Source: Eledone cirrhosa (Eukaryota). Taken from it: a DNA stretch of 64,000 nt. Each line of letters opens with the position of its first letter. The first letter of the stretch is position 1. A model generated the notes under the pieces. The model did not search any database and was not told the origin of the DNA. It saw only the letters and a list, made by a program, of their open reading frames with translations. The DNA is taken from positions 11,594,001 through 11,658,000 of the forward strand of contig OZ024758.1 of NCBI GenBank assembly GCA_964016885.1, given 5' to 3'. Shown here piece by piece: positions 6,475-45,014 of the stretch. Made by a program: the position numbers and the translations under genes.

Positions 6475-6523
<49 letters not shown>

Positions 6524-6531
<8 letters not shown>

Positions 6532-6869
6532 AGATCAAAAGATGGTTAAAGGAGTTCAATATATTTTATTATGCGCATTTCAAAAACAAACATCATCAAA
6601 CAATAATATTTGTGTTTTCATCAGATAAAACAGGAGAACATGATATGAAGGCTAAAAAAACACTTGTTGATAGTGCAGTTTTAAATCAACATATCAAGAT
6701 ATGTTGATTTAAAACTGCACTATCAACAAGTGTTTTTTTAGCCTTCATATCATGTTCTCCTGTTTTATCTGATGAAAACACAAATATTATTGTTTGATGA
6801 TGTTTGTTTTTGAAATGCGCATAATAAAATATATTGAACTCCTTTAACCATCTTTTGATCTTATATTAT
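6524..6869. mobile_element. Perfect palindrome (about 172-bp arms, 2-nt loop) carrying a hammerhead motif in each arm
   Basis: Arms are exact reverse complements around ATC-AA-GAT (centre 6696-6697). (TA)n lies to the left, and a unique tail runs to about 6955 followed by (TA)n. Confidence 0.9.
6763..6829 (+). ncRNA. Type I hammerhead ribozyme motif (mirror copy 6564-6630, minus)
   Basis: TTTTAT-CTGATGA-AAACACAAATATTATT gttt GATGATGTTTGTTTTT-GAAAT gcgc ATA-ATAAAA. Stem I is 6 bp, loop III is palindromic and the triplet is AUA. Confidence 0.8.
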
Positions 6870-6952
6870 GCATACTCCAGTCCCACAAACTGTAGAGTGC
6901 TTCTTATCCGATATCTGCATTGCTTTATTGTACTACAATAAAACTCACCTCC

Positions 6953-7002
<50 letters not shown>

Positions 7003-7109
7003 TATGTATGTATGTATACGTACATACATATATGTATACAGACGTACAGTAGTATGTATATATATACATACATGCACACATATATATATGCACGTATCGG
7101 TTTACGTAT

Positions 7110-7600
7110 ACATACTACTGTACGTCTATATACATATATGTATGTACGTATACATACATACTTACATTTAAGTAAGTGCCGCACTAAGAGTGAGAAATGA
7201 AATTTCGTTTCATTCTATTCCATTTATCGTTTTCTGTGTGACCGGCCGACTGAACTCACTCGCTATGCAAATTAGGCTGCTCAGCCGTTAATATGCACAA
7301 GGAAAGTATATACTTTCAGACGTTCAACTATCTGGCAGGAAGGTATACGATGCTGACGATAGCTAATAAGCTTGAAACTAGTACATCGTTCCTGTGTCAG
7401 TGTTGAACAATAAGGTGACGTGGTTGCCTAAACACTGTACGGCGTAATTCGGGCTGTTTGTTTGTTTACAAACGATGTGTGCATGTATGTATATATATAC
7501 ATACTACTGTATGTATGTACGCATACATACATACATACATACTTACATTTAAGTAAGTGCTGTACTAAGAGTGAGAAATGATATTTCGTTTCATTCTATT

Positions 7601-7603
<3 letters not shown>
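7110..7603 (+). mobile_element. Non-coding direct-repeat-bounded unit (381-bp period) with central hammerhead; retrozyme- or pLTR-like
   Basis: CTTACATTTAAGTAAGTGC..ACTAAGAGTGAGAAATGA.ATTTCGTTTCATTCTATTCCA occurs at 7161 and 7542. Hammerhead motif at 7347-7389. Confidence 0.7.
7347..7389 (+). ncRNA. Type I hammerhead ribozyme motif
   Basis: ACGATG-CTGACGA-t-AGCT aata AGCT-t-GAAAC ta GTA-CATCGT. Stem I is a perfect 6 bp and can be extended by AGGAA/TTCCT. Confidence 0.85.
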
Positions 7604-7683
<80 letters not shown>

Positions 7684-7804
7684 TATATATAAATATATAT
7701 AAATATATTACTGACGTTATAACAATAGCAAAATGAATAAAGTATCTCCCTTCTTACATCGCAATACTTTGTGATAATAAAACTACTGTCATATTTGAAT
7801 CTTA

Positions 7805-10030: not shown

Positions 10031-10437
10031 TCTATCTATCTAAGGCGGGTAAAATTCCCGAGATCCATGGACGAGTTCTCTCCAGCGGTCTCTGTCCCTC
10101 ATTATCGCTGCCATATCCTGCATCTCCAACAGACCAGTGTCTGTCCTTAGGGCATCAACATATGTTAACCTTGGTCTTCCTCTTCTAGTGTGTCCATGTA
10201 GGGGCTCCCAAAGGAGCACTGAGTGCAATGTCAACTCTGGATGTCGGTGAGCATGTCCAGCCAACCTCAGTCTCCTCTGTGTCACTTTTGAGCTGACTTT
10301 TGGGATGCTCCCATACAGCTCTGAGTTTTTCATCCTCAGTGTATACTGATTAATGTTCAGAGCCATCCTCAGCATTCTCGTGTAGCACCCATCCACCATC
10401 TGAGTGAGTCTCTTGGTCAGTGTCCAAGTCTCAGACT
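10031..10437 (-). mobile_element. 5'-truncated RTE-clade LINE (C-terminus of the RT ORF, stop, (TAGA)n tail)
   Basis: Translation SETWTLTK..DGCYTRMLRMALNI..RRLRLAGH..LLWEP.HG..RRGRP..TYVD.L..D..DR.RWR matches the typical post-RT C-terminus of RTE-like non-LTR elements. Confidence 0.85.
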
Positions 10438-10455
10438 TATATATATATATCTATA

Positions 10456-28453: not shown

Positions 28454-28467
28454 GTATATATATGTAA

Positions 28468-28646
28468 GTTATTCGGGGTTGAATCAGGGGTAACCACAGT
28501 AAGTAAAGTACTCAATACATAGAAGAGTATAAATGTTTTAATATAGAAGAGATTCTACACGACTAGAACTGTTTCATTCGTGGGAAATCACCAGGAAGCG
28601 CTTCCTGATGATTTCTCACGAATGAAACAGTTCTAGTTAGAAGCTC

Positions 28647-28650
<4 letters not shown>
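28468..28650. mobile_element. Fold-back element family E with hammerhead motifs
   Basis: Centre GGAAGCGCTTCC. Contains GCTTC-CTGATGA-tttctcacgaat-GAAACAG.... Homologous to 44826-45014 and 55450-55583. Confidence 0.8.
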
Positions 28651-28708
<58 letters not shown>

Positions 28709-28711
<3 letters not shown>

Positions 28712-28848
28712 AACGAGTAGGACCCCGACGGCTGAGCTCAAGCTATTTCGACGGCTAATTCTGGACTAAAACCCACTCTACTACCCTAAGTATTGAGTAC
28801 TTTGGTGCGTTATGGTCCACCTGGTTCCTTACCACATTTCCTTCGTTA
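28709..28848. mobile_element. Family A, internally deleted (short arm joined to the distal long arm)
   Basis: GGAACGAGTAGGACCCCGACGG...CTGGACTAAA is fused to ACCCACTCTACTACCC...CCTTCGTT. Confidence 0.85.
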
Positions 28849-28909
28849 TACATATATATATATATATATATATATCATAAAAGATAGAGATAGAGATAGA
28901 TAGATTGAT

Positions 28910-39575: not shown

Positions 39576-39859
39576 GTATATAACCAAGCGAGTTTGACAT
39601 GGAAATCTAGCCGAATAAATTTGAGAAAATAAGCGATCCATCTAATTTTCTGCACAGATCTTAAAATCAATAAGTACATCGCGTCACTGTTTGAAAAAGC
39701 AATCATTATCAGCAGTAAGAGAAGCTGTCGCAGTAACACTTCCGGGGACGGCCTTGAACTATCCTCCAACAGTAATAAGGTAGATGTAATTAACAGCCTT
39801 GTGCTATTTGTTTTCACATCAAGGTTTCTATTTGAATTTTGGATGACGACATCTATAGA

Positions 39860-40625
39860 ATATATAATCAGGCTTTTCGACTGATTATACATTAAGCACG
39901 GGACGACATCTTTGAAAGTAACGACAACCTCAAATATTTAGATGTGTACTTGTTATTTAACATAAAATATATAATCAGATTCTTTGAACTGATTATAAAT
40001 TAAGCAAGGGATGACATCTTTGAAAGTAACGACAACCTCAAATATTTAGATGTGTAATTGTTATTTAACATAAAATATATAATCAGATTCTTTGAACTGA
40101 TTATAAATTAAGCAAGGGACGACATCTTTGAAAGTAATGACAACCTCAAATATTTAGATGTGTACTTGTTATTTAACATAAAATATATAATCAGATTCTT
40201 TGAACTGATTATAAATTAAGCAAGGGACGACATCTTTTAAAGTAATGACAGCCTCAAATATTTAGATGTGTACTTGTTATTTAACATAAAATATATAATC
40301 AGATTCTTTGAACTGATTATAAATTAAGCACGGGACGACATCTTTGAAAGTAACGACAACCTCAAATATTTAGACGTGTACTTGTTATTTAACATAAAAT
40401 ATATAATCAGATTCTTTGAACTGATTATAAATTAAGCAAGGGACGACATCTTTTAAAGTAATGACAGCCTCGAATATTTAGATGTGTACTTGTTATTTAA
40501 CATAAAATATATAATCAGATTCTTTGAACTGATTATAAATTAAACAAGGGACGACATCTTTTAAAGTAATGACAGCCTCGAATATTTAGATATTTAGATA
40601 TGTATTTGATATTTAACGTAAAATA
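39860..40625. repeat. 108-bp tandem repeat, about 7 units
   Basis: ATTAA(G/A)CA unit starts at 39891, 39999, 40107, 40215, 40323, 40431 and 40539. Each unit carries the hairpin TATAATCAG-N10-CTGATTATA. Confidence 0.95.
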
Positions 40626-44825: not shown

Positions 44826-45014
44826 GTTATTCCGGGTTGAATCGGAGGTAACCACAGTAAGTAAGGTACTCAATACATAGCAGAGTATAAAAGTTTTAAT
44901 ATAGATGAGATTCTACAGGACTAGAACTGTTTCATTCATTAGAAATCATCAGGAATCACTGATTCCTGATGATTTCTAATGAATGAAACAGTTCTAGTCT
45001 GTAGAATCTCATCT
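44826..45014. mobile_element. Fold-back element family E, two intact hammerhead motifs head to head
   Basis: Arms meet at 44958-44960. The long arm is on the left, the short arm ends ...GAATCTCATCT, and (TA)n lies on both sides. Confidence 0.85.
44961..45008 (+). ncRNA. Type I hammerhead ribozyme motif (mirror copy 44909-44957, minus)
   Basis: GATTC-CTGATGA-t-TTC taat GAA-t-GAAACAG ttctagt CTGTA-GAATC. All three stems pair and the triplet is GUA. Confidence 0.85.

Follow-up and report, generated by a model that had tools for sequence, protein, structure and literature searches.

An abundant 444-bp hammerhead repeat in the genome of Eledone cirrhosa with the insertion footprint of Penelope-type elements

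Overview

In the 64,000-nt stretch of the Eledone cirrhosa genome analysed here (hereafter the window), the element at 7000-7603 is very probably a deleted, single-ribozyme copy of a high-copy 444-bp repeat, likely a non-LTR retrozyme pasted into a TA microsatellite by a Penelope-type (PLE) RT/endonuclease. In the proposed route, multi-unit copies would be transcribed, perhaps from a U6-like motif, and their RNA would self-cleave as a dimer and might then be ligated into a circle. A PLE protein would nick both strands of a (TA)n run and prime cDNA from each side, with one cDNA starting from each of two internal sites ~60 nt apart; both cDNAs would stop at variable points before being joined. 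The observations on the window copy, on the family to which it belongs and on a control PLE family of the same genome are presented below.

The copy at 7000-7603 and its surroundings

The element was embedded in a (TA)n run and consisted of a 106-bp inverted arm and a 497-bp arm placed back to back (Table 1), and it fitted the anatomy found across the family, with a TA run, a short-ended arm (7000-7105), a long-ended arm (7107-7603) and another TA run. The first-pass annotation had described this DNA as a 381-bp direct repeat devoid of a credible ORF. Both the register and the spacing were reproduced, as the 381-bp register obtained the top score (116/210 matches vs 82 for the next register) and 7160-7227 matched 7541-7608 at 94% over 68 nt, and no credible ORF was found in the repeat. 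The inverted copy that had been reported upstream was indeed present, but its limits (7000-7056) were wrong, the real span being 7000-7105. Other parts of the initial reading had to be abandoned: 381 bp is not the family unit, since the family period was mostly 442-446 bp and the 381-bp length was private to this copy; any circle would measure ~444 nt, from the family unit, and not ~380 nt; and the repeat boundary, which had been taken for that of a permuted insertion, was not an arbitrary permutation but a fixed Penelope-type end.

The shortening from 444 to 381 bp corresponded to a 55-bp deletion and a net loss of ~8 nt in low-complexity sequence. The deletion junction had a single exact match genome-wide, the window copy itself, and the inverted arm retained bases missing from the main arm, so that the deletion was probably absent from the template; it probably arose during or after the insertion of this copy. 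A 381-nt circle was ruled out on the same two grounds, the uniqueness of the junction in the genome and the presence of the deleted bases in the opposite arm. Because it possesses one hammerhead only, the window locus is an inactive, internally deleted solo derivative, and therefore no cut-to-cut circle is possible from it.

Table 1. Features of the element at 7000-7603 and of its flanks, in window coordinates.
Feature	Position	Strand	Remarks
Left (TA)n target microsatellite	6956..6999	.	Common to the neighbouring element
Inverted arm	7000..7105	-	Unit positions ~345 to 4; bounded on the outside by the fixed short end of the family
Main arm	7107..7603	+	Starts at unit ~392, contains one entire (deleted) unit and stops at the long fixed end (~64)
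Internal copy of the ~60-nt tail (between short and long fixed ends)	7160..7224	+	
Octamer-containing motif	7264..7275	+	Matches the host U6 -77 to -79 element; promoter role putative
TATA-like box	7307..7312	+	43 nt past the motif (host U6: 47-49 nt)
Extended, interrupted helix I around the ribozyme (predicted)	7322..7408	+	
Type I hammerhead motif	7347..7389	+	Predicted cut 7383/7384; U.U at the base of helix II
Junction of the 55-bp deletion (unit 315-369)	7473..7474	+	Private to this copy
Terminal tail copy	7541..7603	+	Stops at the long fixed end
Right (TA)n target microsatellite	7604..7708	.	

Several other repeats were present in the window. A second two-armed hammerhead element (6519-6955) adjoined the same TA run and possessed 177-nt perfect arms (6519-6874), the right one extended by ~80 bases, and ribozyme motifs at 6624 (-) and 6769 (+), with relatives at 92-97% in two other loci (L067 and L073); by eye, 12 nt of its tail and the terminal CCTCC were shared with the 3' region of the intact PLE family described below. 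A third hammerhead family was represented by two copies (28464-28652 and 44826-45010), both two-armed, with the junction inside the ribozyme and TA runs on the flanks, and its relatives were found in four of the 20 PLE loci examined. Each of these copies was followed, across the TA run, by a small repeat (28710-28850 and from 45482) that recurred in six loci, often as an inverted pair. The window also contained a further type I hammerhead motif at ~51601 (+), with a relative in L070, a 108-bp tandem repeat of 6.8 copies at 95% (39855-40591), and at 10040-10450 (-) a fragment whose resemblance is presumably to the C-terminus of a LINE ORF.

Family size and unit length

The host genome (3.0 Gb) was rich in (TA)n. 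A 33-mer from the tail had 3,061 exact matches in this genome and a 31-mer from the ribozyme had 24,001, with 0 matches for the reversed control in both cases, while the search with the unit returned 3,656 candidates, of which 40 were scored. The class suggested by the first-pass annotation, a multicopy, ORF-less, tandem-forming hammerhead repeat, was thereby confirmed: the genome-wide search for tandem copies that it had called for revealed thousands of copies, with tandems of up to 10 units, rather than a single-copy sequence. The unit measured ~444 bp, the 29 tandem spacings falling mostly at 442-446 bp (range 385-515 bp), and relatives were ~63 bases longer than the unit of the window copy. 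Near-full copies showed a median divergence of 2.1% from the family majority (133 segments), and sister units possessing the ribozyme 31-mer ranged from 420 to 538 bp and were alignable along their length. The 444 unit folded far better than its shuffles (z -7.85, compared to z -3.84 for the 381 version), its low fold energy being owed partly to the palindromic low-complexity part.

Li 2026 takes at least two complete ribozymes in succession as the mark of an 'active' retrozyme; nine of the 76 sampled elements (see next section) possessed two or more same-strand ribozymes, and the window copy has one. Contigs of three sequencing runs, of unstated kind and uninformative as to expression, displayed the long end followed by TA, and also a related sequence under a second organism label. 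A literature search, with subscription papers and repeat databases outside its coverage, returned no description of this family.

Insertion footprint

The first 100 positional matches of the tail 33-mer on one chromosome belonged to 76 elements, of which 47 were two-armed, with the arms back to back and their sense strands outward, and 29 were one-armed. Their outer ends clustered at two sites of the unit ~60 nt apart, at position ~65 (long end) and at positions ~3-10 (short end), and the inner ends of the arms were variable and scattered. In the 37 two-armed elements for which both ends could be classified, a long end was invariably combined with a short one, with no long+long and no short+short pair, the latter being under-sampled by a selection based on the tail 33-mer; in the 10 others of the 47, one end was unclassified, in some owing to parsing errors. 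Under an independent choice of ends, at least one third of the pairs would be long+long, which by our own arithmetic corresponds to (2/3)^37, or ~3e-7. A contact with (TA)5 was found at 102 of the 112 fixed ends, compared to 14 of the 29 inner ends of one-armed copies. The family shows the footprint expected of PLE mobilisation, with two fixed 3' ends, an inverted truncated arm and a microsatellite target.

A PLE family of the same genome encoding intact 900-aa RT+GIY-YIG ORFs was considered as a mechanistic control, and not as a proven partner. Its ends lay in (TA)n at two positions separated by ~45 nt (of 30 ends, 14 were long, 11 short and 5 other), and among eight hand-picked head-to-head pairs, the six that were readable at both ends were all long+short. 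The available text of Craig 2021 (PMC8557442) describes for PLEs the head-to-head layout with an inverted truncated arm, and that of Frangieh 2024 (PMC11167929) places the tail between the two sites where the RT starts and reports cutting and extension of both strands. At L293:1314-8515, a young insertion of a PLE contained two intact RT/GIY-YIG ORFs of 900 aa arranged head to head, and many near-identical copies of it were present genome-wide.

Hammerhead motif

A near-ideal hammerhead of the minimal type had been proposed at this position. Its parts were recovered, with CUGACGA at 7353, a 6-bp helix I (7347-7352/7384-7389), GAAA, a palindromic ACUAGU and a GUA site, but the type was not. Helix II consisted of 4 bp (AGCU/AGCU) atop a U.U mismatch adjoining the core, and helix I was predicted to extend further, out to 7322/7408. 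In the definitions given in the accessible part of PMC4209133, canonical metazoan type I ribozymes have a helix I of 6 bp, a helix II of 4 bp and a short palindromic helix III, and the PLE minimal hammerhead has a helix II of 7-8 bp, a helix I of 4-5 bp and an extra unpaired base. By these definitions, the predicted ribozyme is of the canonical metazoan type I and not of the PLE minimal type.

Rfam reported no hammerhead at this site, whether by gathering score or with E up to 5, and its low-score matches here were microRNA models on hairpins. Across 32 sister sequences (34 were extracted, two of which were left out owing to a deletion and a rearrangement), 96.8% of the cells were paired in the ribozyme fold, compared to 28-41% in slid controls. 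One helix I pair was altered on both sides in an inherited pattern, and covariation rests mainly on this pair, helices II and III being set by the search pattern. In two of the five comparisons with shuffles, the observed value did not stand out (241/500 and 226/500). Pairing across the sisters is thus modest support for the predicted fold.

According to the available text of PMC7229834, a palindromic helix III predicts cleavage as a dimer, so that the window copy, with its single ribozyme, could not cleave that way in cis. Co-folding of two copies did not yield the active dimer. In Xenopus, as far as the accessible part of that report goes, eight of nine predicted retrozyme dimers failed to cleave, which counts against reading the motif as active.

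Promoter-like motif

Each unit carried a motif resembling the host U6 promoter. Among 15 host U6 loci, TATGCWAATKAG lay at -77 to -79 with TATA at -30 in seven, was displaced further upstream in another seven and was missing in one, and at the corresponding place it was missing in the four U2 loci examined. In the unit, the motif at 7264 was followed 43 nt later by TATATA, a spacing 4-6 nt shorter than that of host U6. Such a motif was contained in 24 of 100,000 simulated sequences, a post hoc figure, while the alignment of the whole region to U6 upstream DNA was no better than that of shuffles (its score was attained in 28 and 35 of 300); only the positioned motif, and not the whole upstream region, resembles U6 above chance. 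Sister units possessed T6-T8 runs ahead of the long end, which, together with the short spacing, makes a plain Pol III model doubtful.

The promoter of newt satellite 2 is of the octamer/snRNA type. Schistosome SM-alpha and newt satellite 2 have in their tandem unit a promoter followed by a hammerhead, as in the present family, where the promoter is putative, and with this order propagation needs multimers. The available text of a review (PMC6765202) states for SM-alpha that a promoter ahead of the ribozyme makes multimers necessary for spread, and it assigns Pol III to SM-alpha and Pol II to newt satellite 2.

Concerning the host U6 genes, a tandem cluster of ~30 was found at G000:C19:31780605-31840331, and in 6 of the 11 examined a repeat was inserted in the promoter, the upstream motif being displaced to -271. 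At L248, upstream of U6, a full U6 was fused with a piece of the third hammerhead family and a TA run, an arrangement reminiscent of a U6 retrocopy that arose through template switching.

Template RNA

Among the arms that reached the cleavage site, 45 of 47 read past it, and the template was therefore a re-ligated or an uncut RNA. One third of the arms or slightly less (33/106) were longer than one unit, the longest measuring 4,455 nt. A linear cut-to-cut monomer was rejected as the main template, as inner ends were not in excess at the cleavage site (3 vs 2.4 expected). Inner ends at the putative start site numbered 2 vs 2.2 expected, and a mild excess occurred at a hairpin (15 vs 7.6, p = 0.012).

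Within a locus, the two arms and every unit carried the same subfamily haplotype (e.g. L120, L122 and L141). Subfamily variants were shared at 68% within the same arm, 55% between opposite arms and 6% between loci, these percentages being weighted by pair and driven mostly by a few loci (means per locus of 0.21 and 0.16). Such sharing fits one donor per insertion and would suit a circle and a multimer alike. Rare variants common to all copies of a locus were few (18, vs 541 private), so that templating by one molecule is not shown. As for RNA-editing scars, A>G changes exceeded T>C changes (96 vs 66, p = 0.03), and G>T was equally skewed against C>A (86 vs 43).

A serious alternative, though one we place short of probable, retains the same element and enzyme and differs from the best explanation in the template only: the RT would have copied an uncut linear read-through RNA, or would have jumped, with the ribozyme as a passenger and no circle. 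Arm lengths showed no step at one unit, so that a multimer fits as well as a circle, and substitutions in the ribozyme core were only modestly reduced relative to the rest (20/1917 vs 556/30241). Against this alternative, the core was identical across units of 420-538 bp, though pattern-selected. In the anole PLE system, the available text of PMC11167929 reports that unprocessed RNA was the dominant substrate and that cleavage was dispensable for insertion in vitro; the retrozyme RNAs of coral, mussel and axolotl, on the other hand, are described in the published excerpts as partly or largely circular. Moreover, truncation would presumably shrink the arrays at each round unless they were regenerated.

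Possible, but held more tentatively, is a self-promoting circular-RNA retroelement, in which a U6-like promoter inside each unit would give rise to multimers, the hammerhead would cut these to 444-nt circles, and a PLE dimer would copy one circle from both sides of the TA break, with a separate start site for each of its subunits. For the nature of the template taken by itself, our judgement gives a circle about an even chance, an uncut multimer somewhat less, and any other template a small remainder.

Search for an autonomous partner

GIY-YIG sequences were abundant in the host genome (10,597 candidates, of which 150 were scored). No autonomous partner sharing the unit sequence was detected in eight GIY-YIG families (50 loci) or in 38 more loci. 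The comparison of the tail with eight PLE families by BLAST and local alignment yielded nothing convincing, the short look-alikes in four of them being near shuffle level, and no pLTR homologue was found in the eight PLE families compared. The view that other copies would not be tied to a long PLE ORF proved correct, with 0 such ORFs in the pLTR position: across 174 loci (duplicates included), no RT/GIY-YIG ORF was found inside the element or continuous with the copies. Links to a PLE ORF at L055 and L075 were ruled out, as they were separate insertions across TA runs.

These results bear on the possibility that the family consists of solo pLTRs left behind by an autonomous PLE after 5' truncation had removed its ORF, without any independent non-coding element. 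The end footprint is identical to that of autonomous PLEs, 67 of the 76 elements have zero or one ribozyme, and the PLE families were sampled only, as given by the scored fraction above; yet upstream of the ribozyme the copies run into the previous unit and not into an ORF, they form tandems of up to 10 units (L141), their ribozyme is of the canonical and not of the PLE minimal type, and the eight PLE protein matches near family copies lie across the TA run or beyond the outer 3' end. We consider this origin improbable. A satellite or fold-back (MITE-like) repeat with an incidental hammerhead, propagated at the DNA level through recombination between TA microsatellites, would suit the low-complexity palindromic content and the insertion in microsatellites, but is very improbable given that the ends are two different fixed sites, one each (37/37), and not identical inverted termini, that the inner ends are variable, and that the layout matches an RT-encoding family.

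Relation to known systems and implications

The animal non-LTR retrozyme class and its proposed link to PLEs are already published. In the available text of PMC7229834 and of Li, Clavereau and Pollet 2026 (10.64898/2026.07.22.740005), metazoan non-LTR retrozymes have in common with the present family an ORF-less, low-GC tandem unit (150-450 bp), a type I hammerhead, no LTR, co-occurrence with PLEs, and a predominance of solo copies and short arrays. The axolotl retrozymes, as described there, include Amex1, with a palindromic tiny helix III, and Amex2, with a U.U at the base of helix II, both as here. For some metazoan retrozymes, these sources report expression, cleavage and circles, whereas in the present family all three are putative. 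The link to PLEs also differs in kind, being a measured insertion footprint here, and shared features, co-occurrence and pLTR homology in the published retrozymes as presented in these texts.

EN+ PLEs and derivatives such as MRC1 share with the family, in the accessible text of PMC8557442 and PMC11167929, a partial tandem, an inverted 5'-truncated arm, a tail confined to one end, (TA)n as the target and a hammerhead. They differ by the possession of an ORF, a tail of 30-40 nt and a minimal hammerhead, where the family has no ORF, a tail of ~60 nt and a canonical hammerhead; the tail of the control PLE family measured ~45 nt. In vitro, according to the text available, the start site of the anole PLE did not differ between strands, whereas here each insertion has one site per arm. 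Judged by these features, the family appears to work like a non-autonomous PLE and has the sequence-level features of animal non-LTR retrozymes.

The window copy itself is a damaged, ordinary family member, and the value of the finding lies in the family-wide footprint rather than in this copy. In the portions of the literature consulted, the movement of animal retrozymes by PLE enzymes from a circular template is proposed and not shown. From the family it is predicted that the RT starts at two sites separated by ~60 nt, each DNA strand having its own, that the target is TA, and that the template runs uninterrupted through the ribozyme site. The same genome contains a PLE whose ORF is intact and whose footprint matches, and an in vitro PLE assay has already been published. 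If the circular-RNA reading were true, this genome would record, thousands of times, the rolling reverse transcription proposed for animal retrozymes. The strict pairing of a long with a short end is also relevant to the way in which PLE proteins employ their pair of start sites.
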